A stretch of DNA of 64,000 nt from Terracidiphilus sp. (lineage in GTDB: Bacteria; Acidobacteriota; Terriglobia; Terriglobales; Acidobacteriaceae): the NCBI GenBank assembly GCA_036488735.1, contig DASXHC010000031.1:27479-91478 (forward strand). The letters run 5' to 3'. A program made the translations under genes and the position numbers. This document shows, in pieces, positions 39,537-56,789 of this stretch; position 1 is the first letter of the stretch; each line of letters opens with the position of its first letter. The notes beneath the pieces were generated by a model, which saw only the letters and a program-made list of their open reading frames with translations, did not search any database and had not been told where the DNA came from.

Positions 39537-39656
39537 TGCCGGCTCTTTCCTGGCCGCACTCCCAGCCCCCTCCGGATGCCTTCCGGTTTCCTCCTTCCTT
39601 CACGCGGTCTATGATGGGAGACGCATACAGCTCCCATGTTCCGCCAGGAGATATCC

Positions 39657-40733
39657 ATGAACGATCACGATGCCCTAACCAGCGGCCGCGGCCGCCGCGA
39701 CTTTCTTAAGGCCAGCGGCGCCGTCACCGCCGCCCTGCTGGCGCCTTCCGCCTTTGCCGTCACTCCCAACAAATCATTGCCGGCGCTGCCTTCCAATCCC
39801 GTTACGCAAAAGGCGATGCCCACCCGCAACCTCGGCAAGACCGGCTACAAGGTCGGCATCTTCTCCCTCGGCGGCCAGGCCTCCCTTGAGAAAGCCAACA
39901 ACTTCGATGTCGCCGTGCCCATCATCGAGCGCTCTCTCGATCTCGGCGTCAACTACATCGACACCTCCTCCATCTACGGCGGCCCGCTGCGCTGGAGCGA
40001 GCAATACGTCGGCAAGGTCATGGCCACCCGCCGCCATGAAGCGTTCCTCGCCACCAAGACCAAGGAGCGCACCCGCGACGCCTCCCTGCGCATGATTGAA
40101 AAATCACTGCAGCTGCTGCAAACCGATCACGTCGACCTGTGGCAATTGCACGACGTCGGCACCCTGTTCGACGTCAACGAGATCTTCGCCAAGGGCGGCG
40201 CCATGGAAGCCCTGCTCGAAATGCAGGATCAGAAAGTGGTGCGCCATCTCGGCATCACCGGCCACTACCGTCCCGACGCCTTGATGGAGTGCATTCATCG
40301 CCACGACTTCGACACCATCCTCATGGCCATGAACGCCGCCGATCCCCACCACTACAGCTTCAACGAAGCCCTCCTGCCTCTCGCCGTCGAAAAGCAAATG
40401 GGCATCATCGGCATGAAGATCCCCGGCCGCGGCCGCATTCTCGCGTCATGGAACCCGCCGCCCATCGAACAGCAGAAAAAATCCTGGGAAGGCATGACCA
40501 TCCAGACCAGTAATCCCGGCACCCTCACCATGCGCGAAGCCATGTACTACACCCTCTCGCGCCCCGTAAGCACCGTGATCATCGGCTGCGACACCATCGC
40601 CCAGCTTGAAGAAAATGTACAACTGGCCCGCGACTTCAATCCCATCACCGACAAGCACGCCGGCGAGCTTGTCGCCCGCGCCGAGCCATGCGCCAAGCCA
40701 TCGCTCTTCTTCCGCTTCTACGACCGCCCCTGA
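39657..40733 (+). CDS. Tat-signal aldo/keto reductase
   Basis: The ATG at 39657 follows AGGAG. Twin-arginine leader is GRGRRDFLKASGAVTAALLAP. The AKR core contains GVNYIDTSSIYG, DHVDLWQLHD and GITGH. Confidence 0.85.
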   Translation: MNDHDALTSGRGRRDFLKASGAVTAALLAPSAFAVTPNKSLPALPSNPVTQKAMPTRNLGKTGYKVGIFSLGGQASLEKANNFDVAVPIIERSLDLGVNYIDTSSIYGGPLRWSEQYVGKVMATRRHEAFLATKTKERTRDASLRMIEKSLQLLQTDHVDLWQLHDVGTLFDVNEIFAKGGAMEALLEMQDQKVVRHLGITGHYRPDALMECIHRHDFDTILMAMNAADPHHYSFNEALLPLAVEKQMGIIGMKIPGRGRILASWNPPPIEQQKKSWEGMTIQTSNPGTLTMREAMYYTLSRPVSTVIIGCDTIAQLEENVQLARDFNPITDKHAGELVARAEPCAKPSLFFRFYDRP

Positions 40734-44969: not shown

Positions 44970-46799
44970 TCAGCCTTCGGCGTTCAGATACAAGCCGTAG
45001 TGTTCGTCCCGGATCGCTGCGAATGGCCGCAGCGTCATGGGCTCGGCCTCCGTCTTCACCTGCCAGTCGGTTGATCCCGCCGCCACCTGCGTCGCGCCCA
45101 GCAAGTCCTGGCGCCGCACCATGGCCGGCACCGCGCCCACTGTGAACAGCGCCAGCGGCCCGTGCACCGGCGCAACCATGCGTGGATGTTGGGGATCGAC
45201 AGCCTCGAGCGCCGTCGGCATGTCGAATTCCATCTCCATGCGATCGCCGTTCTTCCACGTGCGCTTGATCTGCGCGAACTTGCCCGGCTCGATCGTTCCA
45301 TCCATCCGCTTTCCGTTCACCGCGATCGTCGTCTTCGGACCCGCCCACGCCGGCACCCGCAGATACACGGCAAACGCAGCCTGCCTGTCTGTTTCCACCA
45401 CGATCTCCGTCGCCGGCGTGTGCGGATAATGGGTCTTTTGCGTCAGCGCGATGCCCGCCCCGCCACGGTTCCACCTCACGCGCGAAGGCACAAAAAGGTT
45501 TACGTATACACCATCATCGTCGTGGAAGTACGAACTGATCCCATAATCCGCCGTCACCTGCGAATAGGTGCCGGTGCAGCAGTGCCACTGATACGGGTGA
45601 TACACCTTGGAGCCGTCGCGGTTGTAGTCGGAGTAGTAGAAGCCGCGGCCGTCTTCCTGGATGGGTTTCGCTCCGAGGATGCAGTTGTAGAGCACCCTCT
45701 CCATGCTGTCGCCATAGCGGCTGTCGCGCGTCACGCGGGTGAGGTAGCGCGTGATTTTGAAATGCGCGTAGGAACCGCACGGCGTCTCAAAGCTGGAGTG
45801 CGTCTTGTCCAGGCTCTGCCCCAGTTCGCCGCTGCCCGGCTCGCGAAAACTTTCATCCGGCCCCCATCCGCCAGTCGCAAAGCTCTGAGCGCGAACCAAG
45901 TCGAACCCGTTGCGCGCCGCGCGCAAGTGCTTCTCGCTGCCCAATACGAGATAAGCCTGCATAGCGCTGCCCATCGCGTTCACATGGCTGTAGGCATGTT
46001 TGCCGGGCAGGACATTTTGCCCATTGGCAAGCGGGTCCCAATACCAGTCATCGGCAAGAAAGCGGACAGCGAGATCTTTGTAACGGCTGCCTGCACCACG
46101 CTGAAACGCGATGAACGCGTTCTCGGAAATTGTGTACGGCTCGTCCCAGCAGAACGAGTCGTCCTTGTGGGGTCGCGCGTATTGCTGCGCGCGCGAAATC
46201 CCGCCCGGCGGCAGGTGGGACGAAACCGAATCCAGCGTTTTGTCGAGAACTTTCAGCGCATCCGGCGCACTCGCGAATTGATGCGCGTCGAGCAGTCCGA
46301 TCGAGATTTTGTCGTAGGTGTAGGCGGGGAACCGGTTGTCGTCCCAGAAATGCGGTGAAATGGCAGGGGCGAAGTTGCGAACCAGGCGATGGACTTTTTC
46401 CTGCGTTGCCTTGTCGCCGGTGGCGGCGTAATCCCGCGACAGTCCGGAAAGGTATTGCCCGAAGCTGTGACCGGGGGCAAATCCGTTATTGGGCCGTGCG
46501 TCCAGATCGCTGAGCGGCGCCCAGCTATACCAGCCTCCCATGTCATCTCCGGGAGCAGGAATTCCGCCGCGCTGACGAAACGGTTTTAAGAGCCGGTCTT
46601 CATCGAGGCCGGCGTAGAAGGCATGGTTGGTTTGAAACTGCTGACGTAACGGGCCTTCGAGGAGTTCGACTTCGCTATAGTTGAACTGCTGAAGGGGTGC
46701 GGCCGTCGCGGCTTCGGCGAGCGATTTGCGGGAACAAAGCACGGATGCCGCAGCCAGAGCAGTGCCGGCCTTGAGAAAATCTCTGCGCGAAGATTTCAC
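44970..46799 (-). CDS. Tat-signal glycoside hydrolase family 127 (beta-L-arabinofuranosidase-like, DUF1680)
   Basis: Leader MKSSRRDFLKAGTALAAASVL. The size (609 aa) and the WHCCTGT Cys pair are typical of the GH127 Zn/Cys site. Confidence 0.75.
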   Translation of the reverse strand: MKSSRRDFLKAGTALAAASVLCSRKSLAEAATAAPLQQFNYSEVELLEGPLRQQFQTNHAFYAGLDEDRLLKPFRQRGGIPAPGDDMGGWYSWAPLSDLDARPNNGFAPGHSFGQYLSGLSRDYAATGDKATQEKVHRLVRNFAPAISPHFWDDNRFPAYTYDKISIGLLDAHQFASAPDALKVLDKTLDSVSSHLPPGGISRAQQYARPHKDDSFCWDEPYTISENAFIAFQRGAGSRYKDLAVRFLADDWYWDPLANGQNVLPGKHAYSHVNAMGSAMQAYLVLGSEKHLRAARNGFDLVRAQSFATGGWGPDESFREPGSGELGQSLDKTHSSFETPCGSYAHFKITRYLTRVTRDSRYGDSMERVLYNCILGAKPIQEDGRGFYYSDYNRDGSKVYHPYQWHCCTGTYSQVTADYGISSYFHDDDGVYVNLFVPSRVRWNRGGAGIALTQKTHYPHTPATEIVVETDRQAAFAVYLRVPAWAGPKTTIAVNGKRMDGTIEPGKFAQIKRTWKNGDRMEMEFDMPTALEAVDPQHPRMVAPVHGPLALFTVGAVPAMVRRQDLLGATQVAAGSTDWQVKTEAEPMTLRPFAAIRDEHYGLYLNAEG

Positions 46800-49021: not shown

Positions 49022-50035
49022 CTAGCCTAACGGGCTGAATTTCACTGCGAGCTTGTCGAAGTCCACCGTGCCCAGGCCGCGATTCGCAGCCATCTGCAAG
49101 TAAGGCAGATGACCAGCATCGAGGTTCCAATATGCCTTGGCAACATAGGCGTCGAGAGCGACAGGGTCGGTGCTCGCGACGACGGTCTTCTTAAGGGCCA
49201 CGTCTTCGAGGTTGCCGCCGGTGGGGCCGTTACGAAGCAGGATGCGATAGCAGTCCATGATGGTAAGCGTCGGCAGCATGAACGCGGCAAGGTCGGCGAG
49301 GCTCTGGTGAATCTGCTGGTGGAGGCGGTTGCGTTCGCCACCGAGAATGCCGTACCAGTTCTTCATGCCCAGCGTGCAGCCGGTAAGACCGTGATGCTTG
49401 GCGATGGGCAGGTTGAGGATTTTGTCGGCCTCGAGAAACGGCGCGAACACTGGCCAGCTCTTCAGCGCGACTCCGCCCATATCGACTTCGCGGAAGAGTT
49501 CCGGATCGGGAAGGATCACTTCCGCACCTTCGGCCCGCGCGGCAGCCTGGATGCCAGAGCGCTGGAAACAACGGCGCGGCTCGTTGCAACTGACGTCTGT
49601 AACGATGACGCGTTTGGCGCCCGCCTGCCAGCATTGGCGCACCACCTCCGCGACCAGTTCAGGGTTGGTATTGGCAGCCTGCTCGGGTGTGCGATCCCAG
49701 GCAATGTTGGGCTTGATGACGACCACATCCTGGCGGGCGATGAAGCGGGACATCCCGCCGAGATCGGCTAACGCGCGTTGAACCAGAGCCCGGGGCTCAC
49801 CGCCCTGCACCACGCTCATATGCGGCAGTTGCGGATTTGCGGTTGTGCGATGATCGCGGCGGGCCTGTTCTGCCAGCGCAGGAACCGGGCGGGCGCTGCG
49901 GGTGCTGAGCCAATAGCCGCCGCCCGCGGCCACAGCCGCGATGCCGCCCGCGCGCAACACGTGAAGCATGGCTTCACGACGGGTGAGGCCCTGCGGCGGA
50001 TTCGGCACGTCGGATGTTTGGTTTTCCTTGGCCAT
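49022..50035 (-). CDS. Tat-signal DUF362 domain protein (paralogue B)
   Basis: From the ATG at 50035: MAKENQTSDVPNPPQGLTRREAMLHVLRAGGIAAVAAGGG, then the DUF362 pattern VVIKPNIAW...LPIAKHHGLTGCTLGMKNWYG...IMDCYRILLRNGPTGG...ASTDPVALD. Confidence 0.8.
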   Translation of the reverse strand: MAKENQTSDVPNPPQGLTRREAMLHVLRAGGIAAVAAGGGYWLSTRSARPVPALAEQARRDHRTTANPQLPHMSVVQGGEPRALVQRALADLGGMSRFIARQDVVVIKPNIAWDRTPEQAANTNPELVAEVVRQCWQAGAKRVIVTDVSCNEPRRCFQRSGIQAAARAEGAEVILPDPELFREVDMGGVALKSWPVFAPFLEADKILNLPIAKHHGLTGCTLGMKNWYGILGGERNRLHQQIHQSLADLAAFMLPTLTIMDCYRILLRNGPTGGNLEDVALKKTVVASTDPVALDAYVAKAYWNLDAGHLPYLQMAANRGLGTVDFDKLAVKFSPLG

Positions 50036-50126
50036 GGAGTTTCTTTTCACGCTGCCTTCGTTTTTGCGTTTCCACATCGTATTCGCCGAAGCAAACGCAA
50101 ATGGGGGCTCTCTTCCTGGTAAGCCG

Positions 50127-51134
50127 CTAGACCTCGAGCAGATGGATCTTCTGCGGGTCGTTAGTGCCGAGATTGTGCGCGGCATCGGCGGCCGTGGCAA
50201 TGTAGCGCGGCGGACGCCCAGCAGCCTCAAGTGTCTGGAAGCCGGACTCGGCGCGCTTGCGCTCGATCATTTGCCAGGCGGTGTGGTCGATGGCTACGCG
50301 GTCTTCGCCCACGACCAGCGCATTGGGGTACCACAGGCGCTCGGGATGAAAGCTGGGACCGCCATCGTATACAGACGACATGGCATCGCCGATGGTGAAG
50401 CGAACCTTCTCCCGGATCACCGGGATGCAATTGAGGTCGGCAACTCCGGGATTGCAACCCCCCGCATGCAGGTCAAAAGGCCGATCGACCACGCCGTACA
50501 TGTTCTTCATGGCAAAGGTCACCCCTGACATCTGGTGATCCTTGAGGATCGGCAATCCAATGACCATGGCGCATTCGCGCGTGAGTATTTTGGAGAGTTT
50601 GATTTTTGCGCTTCCCCAGCTTTCCTGATTGTCTTCGTATCCGGAGACATCGGAGCCGAAACAACGAACGCGGCTGGGGTCGGTGTTGAGGGTGAGGCCG
50701 CAGACCTGGAGGTCGCGGGCGTTGCGATCCCATACCAGGATATTGCCCGGCTTAACGCCGGCCTGCTGTAACCGCTCCGCGACGGCGAACACCAGGGCCG
50801 CGTGCGTAGAAATGCCCTTGCCGCCGAGCCCATTGGTCTTGAGACCGATGACCTTGCCCTCGGCATTGCCTTGCGCGATGATATGCTGCCAGGCTTCAAC
50901 AGGCTTGACGCGCCCGGTGTAGGAAGCGATGGCGCGGTCGAGAAGCTTCGCCACGCGCTTCTCATCGAGTTGGCCGGACCCATCATGCAGGGCAGCATCG
51001 CGGGCGATCACGACGCGCGATTTTCCCGCATCGGCATGCGCCTCAAGGGTTTTAGCCAGCGCCCATTTCCCTTGCGTCCCCAGTACCAGGGCCCCTGTGG
51101 CTGCTTCTTTCAAGAATTCACGGCGGCTTTCCAT
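50127..51134 (-). CDS. Tat-signal DUF362 domain protein (paralogue A)
   Basis: From the ATG at 51134: MESRREFLKEAATGALVLG (consensus S-R-R-x-F-L-K), then VIGLKTNG...LPILKDHQMSGVTFAMKNMYG...IGDAMSSVYDGGPS...GEDRVAID. Confidence 0.8.
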   Translation of the reverse strand: MESRREFLKEAATGALVLGTQGKWALAKTLEAHADAGKSRVVIARDAALHDGSGQLDEKRVAKLLDRAIASYTGRVKPVEAWQHIIAQGNAEGKVIGLKTNGLGGKGISTHAALVFAVAERLQQAGVKPGNILVWDRNARDLQVCGLTLNTDPSRVRCFGSDVSGYEDNQESWGSAKIKLSKILTRECAMVIGLPILKDHQMSGVTFAMKNMYGVVDRPFDLHAGGCNPGVADLNCIPVIREKVRFTIGDAMSSVYDGGPSFHPERLWYPNALVVGEDRVAIDHTAWQMIERKRAESGFQTLEAAGRPPRYIATAADAAHNLGTNDPQKIHLLEV

Positions 51135-51183
51135 GGCGAACCTCGCGATCGGTTGGCGGCGAGCGACTCCTCGCCGGGCGGTT

Positions 51184-51681
51184 TTACAACTTGGCTTCGA
51201 CAGCGTGAGCCAGGGCCAGCAGTGCCTGTTGCGTATCCGCTCCTCCCTGATAACCAACGATGCGGACAAGATATGGGCCCTTGCGGAAAGCGACACTTTG
51301 CGCGTAGGCGAAACCGCCATCGCCAAGCTGCACCGTCTTCCCGTCGGCCGATTGGGCATTCTTCAGAATTTTGACCGCACCCGCGTCGTCCTTCATGGTG
51401 TTCACGTCGACCACCGCTTCGAGCTTGGACTGGTAGTTGTAATCGGACGTGGACGTGGAGACGACGCCCGCCTGGATGTACTGCTCCGAATCGCCGTCGA
51501 TATATTGCCACAGGTCCTTGGCATCAAAGACGCGGGTATCGCCGCTCTTCTGCCAACCGGAAACTTCGCCCGACGCGGGAAATGGATTCACGACATGTTT
51601 CTTGCATGCAGACAAACTGAAAGCGGCGACCAAGGCCAGCGCGACAACACCGAGTTTCAAACCATGGGAATGAATGTGCAC
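51184..51681 (-). CDS. lipoprotein of unknown function
   Basis: GTG start 8 nt after AAGGAG. Lipobox AAFSLSAC. 165 aa. Sits 29 nt after the polyferredoxin gene. Confidence 0.65.
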   Translation of the reverse strand: MHIHSHGLKLGVVALALVAAFSLSACKKHVVNPFPASGEVSGWQKSGDTRVFDAKDLWQYIDGDSEQYIQAGVVSTSTSDYNYQSKLEAVVDVNTMKDDAGAVKILKNAQSADGKTVQLGDGGFAYAQSVAFRKGPYLVRIVGYQGGADTQQALLALAHAVEAKL

Positions 51682-51710
51682 GAAACTAACTCCTTTGACC
51701 CGTAGGCCCC

Positions 51711-53447
51711 TTACTTACGGTTAAGCAGAATTTGGCTGCTGGGGGAGCGGCTTTCGCCGATGCTGGTGACGTAGACGGCGGGCCTCTCCTGCAGTGGGCA
51801 GGCATACTCGCACGCGCCACAGCCGACACAACGGCTGGGATCGACGCGCGGCTGCTTGAGGCGTTTGGTGTTGCCCGCGGAGTCGATGACATCGGCTTCC
51901 TCGACATAAATTGCCTTGGGCGAAACGGGGCACCATTCTTCGCAGACGATGCACTCGGTGGCCTCGCCCCAGGGCAGGCAGCGCCCGCGGTCGTAGAAGG
52001 CTGTGCCGAGGCGAACCGGCTGACCGGCCTGCGCATTCACCCCTACCACCCATCCTTTTTCCCGGGCCGTGATCTGCCAGATGGCGCCGGTTGGGCAAAC
52101 GTCTGAACAGAGCACGCAGCTGGGCTCGCAATAGCCGATGCGCGGCACCAGCATGGGCGTCCACAAGCCCTGCAAGCCGGCTTCATCGAGGGTCGGATGG
52201 AGCGAATTGTTGGGACACACCTTCATGCACTCGCCGCAACGAATGCAGCGAGAAAGAAATTCCGTCTCATCGAGTGACCCCGGCGGACGCAACAGGCGGT
52301 CATGACGGCCCTTGCCCAAGCCGGTGTTGGCACGCATCAGCGGAACCGCGGCGGCTCCCGCAGCCAGCCCGGTAAGGGTCTTGCGGCGATTGAGGTCGGG
52401 CGAAGCCACCTCGCGCTCGTTGCGGAAGAACTTGAACTTAAGGCTTTGATCCGGACAAGCGCCCACGCAGTTCATGCACATGAGGCACTCGGACTTGCGC
52501 CACGGCACGCCGCCAATGGGATCGTCGCCGCCCTGGCAATTCAAGAGGCAGCGGTTGCAATGATTGCAAGTGGTTTCGTCCTTATGCAGACCCAGCAGCG
52601 AAAAACGCGAGGCGACGCCGAGCAATGCTCCCAGCGGGCAGATGGAGCGGCACCACAGCCGCGTGACGCGCAGGCTGGCCGACAGGATGACAAGGAAAAG
52701 ACAGCCAAGCACGAGGCCCTGGGCGAAGTGGGTTTGACGGAAATCGAGAATCGTGGCCTGCAACACGCTATGCGCCACCGTACCCGTTGTCTTGATCGCC
52801 GCGACGTGACTGTGTTCGAGCGGGGCGAGCACGGCGCGCGCCGCGAAGTTGAACGCGGGCAGAAGCGCCAGCCCGACCGAGCGAACGAGGAGACTGAAAG
52901 GATCAAGCCAGCCCAGCGCCATGGACCCAAAGCAGGCGGCCACCAGGCCGGCAATCAGGACCACATACTTCACCGTCTGCCAGCCTTTGTAGCGATTGGA
53001 TTCGATGCGCTGCTTTCCGCGTTTGGCTTCGGAATGCATAGTGCCGATCCAGTGCTGCATCGTGCCCAGGGGACAGATCCATCCGCAGAAAAAGCGGCCC
53101 AGAAGGATGGTGGGGACCAGGACGACGAGACTCAACAGCAGGCCGCGATAGAGAGCGTGGCTGGCCAGCGCGTTGGAGAGGGCGACCAGCGGATCGATCA
53201 GAAAAAACAGGCGAACCGGGGCGCGCAGATGGATGTCCCCGGTCCCGCCCGGGGAGGGACGCAGGGAAGTGAAGATGAGCAGGGCCATGAAGACCAACAG
53301 AAAGAAGATCTGCGAGATCCTGCGCCACCGCGGCAATCGGGAACGGGCCACGAAACTCCTCCGCGCAGATCTTGCGCACGAAGCCAGTCTGAATGCGCCG
53401 GGAAGACTCCTGCGAGTGATCCAACGAAATCTCGAGGCGCATCGCAT
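51711..53447 (-). CDS. membrane polyferredoxin: NapH/MauN-like integral-membrane domain fused to a NapG-like 4x[4Fe-4S] domain
   Basis: TM helices carry CGWICPLG and CRSICPLG (CX3CP) motifs. Next come the clusters CNHCNRCLLNC and CLMCMNCVGACP. An internal NRRKTLTGLAAGAAAVPL segment follows. The C-terminal part holds CIRCGECMKVCP, CVLCSDVCP, CIVCEEWCP and CVGCGACEYACP. Confidence 0.85.
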   Translation of the reverse strand: MRCASRFRWITRRSLPGAFRLASCARSARRSFVARSRLPRWRRISQIFFLLVFMALLIFTSLRPSPGGTGDIHLRAPVRLFFLIDPLVALSNALASHALYRGLLLSLVVLVPTILLGRFFCGWICPLGTMQHWIGTMHSEAKRGKQRIESNRYKGWQTVKYVVLIAGLVAACFGSMALGWLDPFSLLVRSVGLALLPAFNFAARAVLAPLEHSHVAAIKTTGTVAHSVLQATILDFRQTHFAQGLVLGCLFLVILSASLRVTRLWCRSICPLGALLGVASRFSLLGLHKDETTCNHCNRCLLNCQGGDDPIGGVPWRKSECLMCMNCVGACPDQSLKFKFFRNEREVASPDLNRRKTLTGLAAGAAAVPLMRANTGLGKGRHDRLLRPPGSLDETEFLSRCIRCGECMKVCPNNSLHPTLDEAGLQGLWTPMLVPRIGYCEPSCVLCSDVCPTGAIWQITAREKGWVVGVNAQAGQPVRLGTAFYDRGRCLPWGEATECIVCEEWCPVSPKAIYVEEADVIDSAGNTKRLKQPRVDPSRCVGCGACEYACPLQERPAVYVTSIGESRSPSSQILLNRK

Positions 53448-53667
53448 GGAATGCGTTTTATTCAGGCCCGTTGAAAAACGGCATTGTGCCTGCCAATCGA
53501 TAGGCGATGCTTAAGAAAATCGATTTCCTGCGCCGGAATCACACGAGCGCACGCTGTCCATGTACTCAATATGATTGAGGTTTGAGCAGCCCGCAGACAG
53601 TGATGGTCATCACCTGGAACCGCTGTGTCAGGAGCGGCAGCACCCGATCTTCGCTCGAGCTCACAGC

Positions 53668-54414
53668 TCAGAGCCGATTGATCAGGGTGGCGATGCAGGC
53701 GGCTCCGAAACCATTGTCGATATTGACCACGCAGACATTGGGCGAGCAGGTGTTCAACATGCCGAGCAGTGCGGCAACCCCGCCAAACGACGCTCCATAG
53801 CCAACGCTGGTAGGCACTGCCAGCACCGGCGCATTGACCAGGCCGCCCACCACTGTGGGCAGGGCGCCTTCCATGCCGGCGCACACGATGAGAACGCGCG
53901 CCGACTGCAGCGATGTGCGCTGTGCAAGCAGGCGATGAATGCCGGCCACGCCGACGTCGGCGATGAGTTCCACGGTGTTGCCCATCAGGCGGGCGGTAAC
54001 CACCGCCTCTTCCGCGACCGGAAGATCGCTGGTGCCGGCGCAGACTACCGCGATCGTTCCCTTGCCCGGCGTGGGCGGCGCCTGTTCCAGCGTAATGGCG
54101 CGCGCGGTTTCGTGGTACGTGGCGCGCGGTTCGAGAGCCATCACGGCATCGAAGCACTCACGGGACGCGCGCGTGGCCAGCACATTGCCTCCGGCCTGCG
54201 CCATGCGGGCAAAGATCGCGGCCACTTGCGTTGCCGTTTTACCCGACGCGAAGATGACCTCCGGCATGCCGGTGCGCAGGGCGCGATGGTGGTCCAGCTT
54301 GGCAAACCCGAGATCCTCAAACGGCAAGTCGCGGAGGCGGTCCATGGCATCCGGCACCGGGGTGCGTCCTTCGCGCACCTCATTCAAAAGCGCCTCGATC
54401 TGTGCGCGATTCAT
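53668..54414 (-). CDS. larB: nickel-pincer cofactor biosynthesis protein LarB (PurE-like carboxylase/hydrolase)
   Basis: From the ATG at 54414 (ATGA overlap with the larC stop): ...FAKLDHHRALRTGMPEVIFASGKT...IAVVCAGTSDLPVAEEA...VCAGMEGALPTVVGGL...AVPTSVGYG. Confidence 0.9.
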   Translation of the reverse strand: MNRAQIEALLNEVREGRTPVPDAMDRLRDLPFEDLGFAKLDHHRALRTGMPEVIFASGKTATQVAAIFARMAQAGGNVLATRASRECFDAVMALEPRATYHETARAITLEQAPPTPGKGTIAVVCAGTSDLPVAEEAVVTARLMGNTVELIADVGVAGIHRLLAQRTSLQSARVLIVCAGMEGALPTVVGGLVNAPVLAVPTSVGYGASFGGVAALLGMLNTCSPNVCVVNIDNGFGAACIATLINRL

Positions 54415-55871
54415 CAGCGATCCTTCCTGACTGTTGCGGGGAGTGCAGCGAAGAGGCGCGCGGCCTCTTGCATGACTTGCTTGAGCGGGAGAGAGTGTTG
54501 CGCGGCGAGCTTGCGGCAATCTTCGTACTCGGGAGACGCGTTGGCAATTTCACCGGAGGGCCAGCGCGCGATCTTGATCTGCACCGGACCCCATGCCGTT
54601 TCCACTGCGGCGAATTCACGCGCCAAGGCAATTTTGTTCTCGATGCGCCAGTGCAGGCCGATGGTTGTGGTTTCGCGAAACAGGATATCGCGCATTGCGG
54701 GCACCAGTTCGGGACTGGCCAGCACGGTTAATTGGATGCCGGTGCGGCCCTTCTTCATTTGTACTGGGATGCGATAAACATCCCAAGCGCCGGAGGCAAG
54801 CAACAATTCGCTGACATACGCCAGCACTTGCGGAGTGGAATCGTCGATCACTGTCTCAATGATCGCGATGGGCGCAACGGCGGACGTTTCTTCGCTTGCT
54901 TCGCCAACCAGAACACGCACCAGGTTCGGCTGGCCGGGCGTGTCGCGGCCCCCGGCGCCGTATCCCCTGGCTGTGACGCGCATGGCAGGCAAGGATGCAT
55001 ATTCCACGTTGAGCATGCGAAGAAGAGTGGCTCCTGTGGGCGTGACGCGCTCCATGGGAGGTCCGGCTGCATAGACGGGCGCATTGCCTAACAGCGCGAG
55101 CGTGGCGGGAGCAGGCACGGGCAGTGTGCCATGTGCGCAATCTACTGTGCCGCTGCCCACGTTGAGCGGTGAGGCGAGCCAGCGGTCGACACCCAGGTAT
55201 ACGGCCGCCGCGGCTGCGCACACGATGTCCACGATGGTGTCGACGGCGCCGACTTCATGGAAATGCACGCGCTCAACCGGAATGGAATGGATCGCAGCCT
55301 CGGCCTCGCCCAGCATCTGGAAAGCGCGCGCCGCGTTGCCCTTCACTGCATCGGGGAGAGATGCGTCGCGAAGGATGGCAAGAATCGTCGAGAGGGAGCG
55401 ATGGTGCCCATGTTCATGCGCATGAGTATGTGTATGGGAGTGAGTATGCGTATCCGCCGGCCCGTGCGTGTGCTCGTGCTCATGCGTGTGCTCGTGCGTG
55501 TGCTGGTGCAGGGGCGCAGGAGCATCCTCATGCAAATGCGCGTGCGAGTGTTCATGGGTATGTTCATGCGCATGATGGTGAACATCAGAATCCGCATGCG
55601 CATGGGTGTGCGCTTCGTGGGTGTGTTCTCCCGATGCGGAGTGGTCATGCGCATGATTTGCGTCATGCGCCTGGTCCTCCGCGGTAATGACGTCGACCTT
55701 GGTCCCGGTCAAACCGCCGCGCATCACTTTGCGGGATTCGAGACGAGCGCCGACATTGAGCGAAGCGGTAATTTCCGCAAGATGACTGAGGGGAACTCCG
55801 GCGTCGACGAAAGCTCCCAGCAGCATGTCGCCGCTGATGCCGGAAAAGCATTCCAAATATCCAATACGCAT
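54414..55871 (-). CDS. larC: nickel insertion protein LarC (DUF111) with a greatly expanded His-rich region
   Basis: MRIGYLECFSGISGDMLLGAFVDAG N-terminus and HFHEVGAVDTIVDIV. 485 aa. Residues about 68-157 contain 36 His. Confidence 0.9.
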   Translation of the reverse strand: MRIGYLECFSGISGDMLLGAFVDAGVPLSHLAEITASLNVGARLESRKVMRGGLTGTKVDVITAEDQAHDANHAHDHSASGEHTHEAHTHAHADSDVHHHAHEHTHEHSHAHLHEDAPAPLHQHTHEHTHEHEHTHGPADTHTHSHTHTHAHEHGHHRSLSTILAILRDASLPDAVKGNAARAFQMLGEAEAAIHSIPVERVHFHEVGAVDTIVDIVCAAAAAVYLGVDRWLASPLNVGSGTVDCAHGTLPVPAPATLALLGNAPVYAAGPPMERVTPTGATLLRMLNVEYASLPAMRVTARGYGAGGRDTPGQPNLVRVLVGEASEETSAVAPIAIIETVIDDSTPQVLAYVSELLLASGAWDVYRIPVQMKKGRTGIQLTVLASPELVPAMRDILFRETTTIGLHWRIENKIALAREFAAVETAWGPVQIKIARWPSGEIANASPEYEDCRKLAAQHSLPLKQVMQEAARLFAALPATVRKDR

Positions 55872-55916
55872 CGAGGCTGATTTTACGGTATTTGGAACGG
55901 TAGTGTGTAGAGGGGA

Positions 55917-56789
55917 TCAGGCGCCGCGCCGCAACAAGACATCGGCGGGCAGAATGGCGTTCATCGAACCGGAACGAAATCCAGCGCAATCCAGGGTCAC
56001 ATACTTGAAGCCGAGATTGCGCAGGTTCGCGGTGATGGCGTCGAGCGTTTCCATGGTCAGCGCGCGCGGCATCTCCGCGCGGGCTATTTCGACGCGGGCC
56101 AGCTCCCCGTGGTGTCGTACGCGAAATTCCCGGAAACCCAGTTGCCGCATGCTCTCTTCGCCACGCTCCACCTGCTCCAGAACTTCGCGAGTTACGGTAC
56201 GGCCATACTCTACTCTTGAAGAGAGACACGGCGCAGCGGGACGGTCCCACAGCGGATACCCCGCAGCTTTGGCGAGGGCGCGCACTTCAAGCTTGGTCAA
56301 GCCCGCATCCGCCAGGGGCGCAAGCACTTCGTGCTCCTGCGCGGCACGCTGGCCGGGCCGAAAGTCGCGCGTGTCGTCCACGTTCATGCCATACGCGATA
56401 TTGGTGAAGCCAAGTTCGGCTCCCAAGGCTTTCATGCCGTCGAAAAGCTCCGTCTTGCAGTGGAAGCAGCGGTTGGCATCGTTGCGCTGATATTCGGGCT
56501 TCTCGAGTTCTTCGGTGAGGATGACGCGCAGCGGCATATTGATCGAGACGGCGAAGGCGCTGGCCTGTTCCATATCGCGGCGCGCGAGGCTGGGCGAGTC
56601 GGCCAGCACGGCAAGCATGCGGTCGCCGAGCACGCGATGCGCAGTGGCCGCAAGATAAGCCGAATCCACGCCGCCCGAATAGGCAACCATCACGCTGCCC
56701 AATCGCTGAAGCTCACTCTCAAGCGCTTGGAGCTTGCTTGTTGTGTCGGTTGATAACTGGGGAAGACCGGTTTGCGCAGGCGCCGCCAT
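55917..56789 (-). CDS. larE: ATP-dependent sacrificial sulfur transferase LarE (PP-loop ATPase)
   Basis: PP-loop VAYSGGVDSAYLA and a conserved Cys in AAPCLSSRV. 290 aa. Lies 45 nt upstream of larC. Confidence 0.85.
   Translation of the reverse strand: MAAPAQTGLPQLSTDTTSKLQALESELQRLGSVMVAYSGGVDSAYLAATAHRVLGDRMLAVLADSPSLARRDMEQASAFAVSINMPLRVILTEELEKPEYQRNDANRCFHCKTELFDGMKALGAELGFTNIAYGMNVDDTRDFRPGQRAAQEHEVLAPLADAGLTKLEVRALAKAAGYPLWDRPAAPCLSSRVEYGRTVTREVLEQVERGEESMRQLGFREFRVRHHGELARVEIARAEMPRALTMETLDAITANLRNLGFKYVTLDCAGFRSGSMNAILPADVLLRRGA

Follow-up and report, generated by a model that had tools for sequence, protein, structure and literature searches.

Hundreds of prokaryotes synthesize the nickel-pincer cofactor without LarA (PMC13524815), which makes the search for further users of this cofactor an active question. 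The same question is raised by the window analyzed here, a 64,000-nt stretch of DNA from the soil acidobacterium Terracidiphilus sp. (contig DASXHC010000031.1, 27,479–91,478): genes for the synthesis of the nickel-pincer nucleotide (NPN) stand beside genes of two DUF362 proteins, and which protein receives the cofactor has to be explained. The reading favored below, with a probability of about 0.55, is that the locus consists of two separable units and that the lar genes most probably serve an NphT-like aldo-keto reductase. Gene identities were obtained by Pfam and NCBIfam profile scans of the window ORFs (Table 1).

Table 1. Features of the locus, with positions counted from the first nucleotide of the window
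Feature	Position	Strand	Protein length (aa)	Profile matches and other properties
NphT-like aldo-keto reductase	39636..40733	+	365	PF00248 and TAT_signal; TIGR01409 passed; leader GRRDFLK
GH127 beta-L-arabinofuranosidase-like gene	44970..46799	-		Tat signal; PF07944, PF20736, TAT_signal
DUF362-B	49022..50035	-	337	PF04015, 178 bits; twin-arginine leader TRREAML
DUF362-A	50127..51134	-	335	PF04015, 69 bits; Tat leader SRREFLK
DUF6599 lipoprotein	51184..51681	-	165	PF20244, E 9e-14; signal peptide, lipobox LSAC
Polyferredoxin	51711..53447	-	578 (ORF)	Fer4_5 twice and several 4Fe-4S (Fer4) families (Pfam)
larB/polyferredoxin intergenic gap	53448..53667	-		Likely boundary between two units
larB	53668..54417	-	249	NF033503, 292.5 bits (cutoff 175); AIRC Pfam match
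larC	54414..55871	-	485	PF01969, E 1.4e-126; LarC1 and LarC2 models above cutoff
larE	55917..56789	-	290	TIGR00268, 317.6 bits (cutoff 150); PP-loop NAD_synthase Pfam match

A preliminary description of this DNA had listed seven co-directional minus-strand genes from larE to DUF362-B. The ORF list contains all of them at the same coordinates and reproduces the gaps reported (45 nt, an ATGA overlap, 220, 29, 49 and 91 nt). By their profile matches, larE encodes the sulfur-insertion enzyme of NPN synthesis, larC the nickel-inserting cyclometallase with LarC1 and LarC2 fused (196.8 and 137.5 bits; NCBIfam cutoffs 90 and 50), and larB the NaAD carboxylase/hydrolase; all three reach curated equivalog scores (NCBIfam). 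LarE shows a three-Cys pattern (Cys108, Cys111, Cys188), and residues 66–160 of LarC are His-rich (36 His). The three genes are contiguous, the larB start overlapping the larC stop, and their order is the same in about 30 related loci. Judging from these identities, larE-larC-larB constitutes a complete cytoplasmic NPN pathway, which is the first of the two proposed units.

LarA is absent from the window, as the preliminary description claimed: PF09861 was not found by Pfam scans of its approximately 37 large ORFs, and tblastn of the window with three LarA queries was negative even at E ≤ 10. The accompanying premise that LarB, LarC and LarE serve only the LarA family is outdated, since aldo-keto reductases (NphT) and ornithine cyclodeaminases are now known clients. 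The former were reported in PMC13524815; the latter are cited in that paper (Desguin 2025, its ref 22). NphT, described in 2026 (PDB 9YEB), is an NPMN-dependent aldo-keto reductase with NPN covalently attached to Lys200. The criterion for its discovery was a gene no more than 20 ORFs away from larC in the presence of larB and larE and the absence of LarA, and 427 reductase-lar co-occurrences were reported (PMC13524815).

In the window, a reductase gene lies within 20 ORFs of larC, outside the seven-gene interval; the preliminary description had overlooked it as a rival client. The best PDB match of its product is 9YEB (E 8.6e-34, 120 bits; 70 bits for the next match), and NphT is its nearest characterized relative, with 32.7% identity over 297 aa. 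In the alignment, His210 (GITGH) and Lys261 (MK) of the reductase correspond to His144 and Lys200 of NphT (residues of NphT from PMC13524815). Asp109, His172 and Thr208 (NphT Asp47, His106 and Thr142) are retained as well, as is the position of NphT Trp218, whereas Tyr219 is not. The two canonical aldo-keto reductases included in the alignment, 1YNP and 8SCC (L-galactose dehydrogenase), have Ser/Leu and Gly/Ser at the His144/Lys200 positions. The window protein further differs from NphT in its twin-arginine signal, because of which it is predicted to be periplasmic. In every relative examined, the reductase has a Tat signal; the words periplasm, signal peptide and twin-arginine were not found in PMC13524815.

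For this reductase, we infer the following order of cofactor loading and export. NPN synthesized in the cytoplasm would be tethered at Lys261, with its nickel coordinated by His210, and the loaded, folded protein would then be exported by the Tat system. Once in the periplasm, a compartment without NAD(P)H, it could perform hydride transfer on sugars that neighboring exported glycosidases release. Nickel-pincer enzymes may be exported, and a tethered cofactor would allow periplasmic hydride transfer without NAD(P)H.

The second unit, formed by the polyferredoxin, the DUF6599 lipoprotein, DUF362-A and DUF362-B, is widely conserved and is probably a periplasm-facing redox module. The claim that the polyferredoxin is NapH/NapG-like proved right in the sense that the protein is a fusion of a NapH-like part (residues 29–339) and a NapG-like part (351–560), which score far below both equivalog cutoffs (94.9 bits against 234 for NapH, 93.9 bits against 269 for NapG). 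The N-terminal half shares with NapH the membrane helices (4–5 predicted) and two CX3CP motifs (at 121 and 266; motif and hydropathy scan), as well as two 4Fe-4S motifs (294, 321). The C-terminal half shares with NapG a twin-arginine-like segment (RRKTLTGLAAGAAAV at 354, between both 4Fe-4S groups) and four 4Fe-4S motifs (401, 440, 490, 540). Unlike in NapGH, the quinol dehydrogenase of the periplasmic nitrate reductase, both parts are fused here, with DUF362 proteins and a DUF6599 lipoprotein as their partners; napA, napB and napC were not found near the polyferredoxin gene, and Pfam scans revealed no nap genes in the window. On its motifs and scores, the protein is like NapGH in architecture without being a NapH/NapG member. 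Its membrane and Fe-S parts could act as electron carriers that link the quinone pool with a pair of Tat-exported catalytic subunits of LarA-like fold. The lipoprotein gene is part of the module in most Terriglobia loci.

Between the two units, the gap may exceed 220 nt, since homologues of the polyferredoxin have 546–559 aa and the start codon of the longer window ORF is uncertain. It holds only a weak hairpin of 5 bp with a T-run behind it (53495–53479); terminator-like sites were no commoner in the gap analysis than in shuffled sequence. In relatives, the length of this junction ranges between about 135 nt and 2.2 kb; in L008, L093 and L045 it is interrupted by unrelated genes (LeuA-like, GT4 or DUF2306), which speaks for separable units.

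The DUF362 proteins themselves had been proposed as exported NPN clients. Twin-arginine leaders are indeed present on both, with the RR pair retained in 89 of 93 homologues (TIGR01409 17.8 bits for DUF362-A, cutoff 16.7), and a motif scan found no CxxC in either, as had been stated. At E ≤ 0.001, this Tat-type subfamily alone accounts for 5,555 proteins, each of which represents one cluster formed at 50% identity. Seven residues of DUF362-B, Lys108, Asn110, Lys213, His215, Lys225, His239 and Asp261, are invariant in 92–93 of the 93 sequences, and DUF362-A keeps Lys99/Asn101, Lys198/His200, Lys210, His223 and Asp250.

The fold comparison with LarA suggested in the preliminary description gave a positive result. 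When the AlphaFold2 model of DUF362-B (pLDDT 94.3) was compared with the PDB by Foldseek, the top 18 matches all belonged to the LarA family (E 4e-6 to 1.6e-3, probability 1.00, TM 0.37–0.46); generic Rossmann folds followed at E > 3e-3. According to this model, DUF362-B has a LarA-like three-dimensional fold: LarA is its sole significant structural match, and the beta-alpha order is co-linear. DUF362 and DUF2088 (LarA) also share the Pfam clan CL0471 (PMC11770544). The spacing Asp-x10-His-x9-Lys in DUF362 equals that of EAD...His174...Lys184 in LarA, this segment being the core retained by the profile alignment at stringent settings. Its His-x9-Lys part (His215/Lys225) is invariant in 93/93 sequences and was aligned with His174/Lys184 in three of four hhalign runs at P 0.07–0.38, which is not significant; the fourth run shifted the register by one beta-alpha unit. 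The candidate counterpart of the LarA nickel ligand His200 is His239. PF09861 and PF21113 did not match DUF362-A or DUF362-B even at E ≤ 10, PF04015 being the only match, and LarA was not found by a DUF362 profile search of PDB sequences. In contrast to LarA, DUF362 is about 90 residues shorter and has no clear equivalents of His108, Arg75, Gln295 and Lys298; LarA is cytoplasmic and stand-alone, whereas DUF362 leaves the cytoplasm by Tat and has a membrane polyferredoxin as its partner.

The arrangement of larECB with the module is not due to chance, because it recurs in relatives (8 plus 8 related loci); it is one inherited arrangement and not many independent ones. With LarC as the starting point, 14 close loci were informative, and in 8 of them larB is followed by the module; more distant larC genes stand alone between argS and metG. 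The polyferredoxin-DUF362 module is spread over Acidobacteriota, Myxococcota and Verrucomicrobiia. Among its 41 well-flanked loci, lar adjoins it in eight, all with a DUF362-B at least 75% identical to that of the window; the other 33, from several phyla, lack lar, which also supports two separable units. Of the 28 well-flanked loci whose DUF362-B falls short of 75% identity to that of the window, none had lar genes near the module (0/28). The co-localization of lar and DUF362 expected across genomes is thus confined to one Terracidiphilus-like clade. As evidence against the use of NPN by DUF362, however, 0/28 is weak, since lar genes are often dispersed.

The reductase was found in 6 of the 8 lar-bearing module loci and, at the tblastn settings used, in none of the lar-less module loci with both flanks. 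In L103 it forms an operon with larE, larC and larB, and in L089 it follows larB and an outer-membrane-protein gene, DUF362 being absent from both. Three lar-less lineages (L041, L052, L036) possess an operon of polyferredoxin, DUF362, DUF6599 and, as the final gene, a related reductase, which has a C-terminal Fe-S domain and a Tat motif and retains His and Lys at the motif positions; this gene order points to joint action of the reductase and the module.

Taken together, the nearby exported reductase likely explains the lar genes better than the DUF362 neighbors do, given the 9YEB match, the His/Lys motif and the two loci with lar and reductase but no DUF362. Against it, some 13 kb with about ten genes separate the reductase gene from larB, and it is not in the operon, whereas the module begins 220 nt away. 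In addition, L008 and L020 contain lar and the module without a reductase within 10 kb, and L091, L098 and L099 contain lar with neither partner nearby.

Two further explanations bear on the module. The adjacency could be historical only, and this is given somewhat less than an even chance: DUF362 would be a LarA-fold protein with another cofactor or a His/Lys/Asp metal centre, acting as an NPN-independent, quinone-linked periplasmic enzyme, and the lar genes would have no client but the reductase or some protein encoded elsewhere in the genome. Sets of His, His, Lys and Asp are typical of metal sites. The retention of the module without lar in most lineages and the variable, sometimes interrupted larB junction agree with this explanation, and so do the regular partners of the module, iron-sulfur proteins and in many Terriglobia also the AmmeMemoRadiSam trio, which together with the polyferredoxin suggest one-electron or maturation chemistry. 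It fits poorly with LarA as the sole structural relative of DUF362-B, with a spacing that matches the catalytic His and cofactor-tethering Lys of LarA, with the motif-bearing reductases inside the operons of L041, L052 and L036, and with the occurrence of several kinds of NPN-related genes (lar, reductase, LarA) beside the module.

In the alternative of the preliminary description, DUF362-A and DUF362-B would be loaded with NPN in the cytoplasm at the invariant lysine (Lys210 in A, Lys225 in B), exported by Tat and wired by the polyferredoxin to the quinone pool. The result would be a redox or isomerase module that depends on NPN and acts in the periplasm; it is compatible with the reductase being a client as well, and it is a tentative and rather doubtful possibility. 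The LarA-like fold, the invariant His/Lys pair and the conserved twin-arginine leaders count for it, and the absence of Fe-S motifs beside a conserved Tat signal implies some pre-loaded cofactor. The proximity of larB in the related loci also counts for it, as do a second, different arrangement in L092, with a DUF362 paralogue 2 kb from larE, and a true LarA homologue in L044, which lies at a distance of 3 kb from the module. It is weakened by the restriction of lar to one clade, by the non-significant profile alignments and the unmatched PF09861, by a His200 equivalent that is only a candidate, by partners that do not point to hydride chemistry, and by a rival reductase that already accounts for the lar genes. 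Nevertheless, to regard the DUF362 proteins as mere neighbors may underrate their relation to NPN, considering the LarA fold and the conserved His/Lys pair. The broadest reading, with NPN in both the reductase and DUF362, is unlikely: the 39.6–56.8 kb region would then be a periplasmic nickel-pincer-dependent respiratory system, in which sugars or hydroxy acids are oxidized or reduced and electrons pass to or from the quinone pool via the polyferredoxin.

DUF362, the Pfam sister of LarA, is a very large family without an assigned function for any member. If the respiratory reading were true, it would become the third large family of NPN enzymes, and the nickel-pincer cofactor would be linked for the first time to iron-sulfur electron transport. 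Should DUF362 bind the cofactor, the reach of nickel-pincer chemistry would widen to redox enzymes that are linked to the membrane and are common among soil Acidobacteria. Otherwise, the locus still provides a clear case of an NphT-type client in a cellular compartment that is new for this type.

DUF362 proteins with fused 4Fe-4S or CBM9-dockerin modules belong to the same Pfam family (PF04015) as the window pair, and their reported iron-sulfur association and extracellular location agree with the window proteins (PMC5742341). Here, in contrast, the partner with iron-sulfur motifs is a membrane protein of its own, and the DUF362 proteins form a Tat-exported paralogue pair. In relatives, the GH127 gene is a conserved neighbor located between the reductase and the DUF362 module; it follows DUF362-B in L001, L014, L017, L045, L088, L093 and L102.

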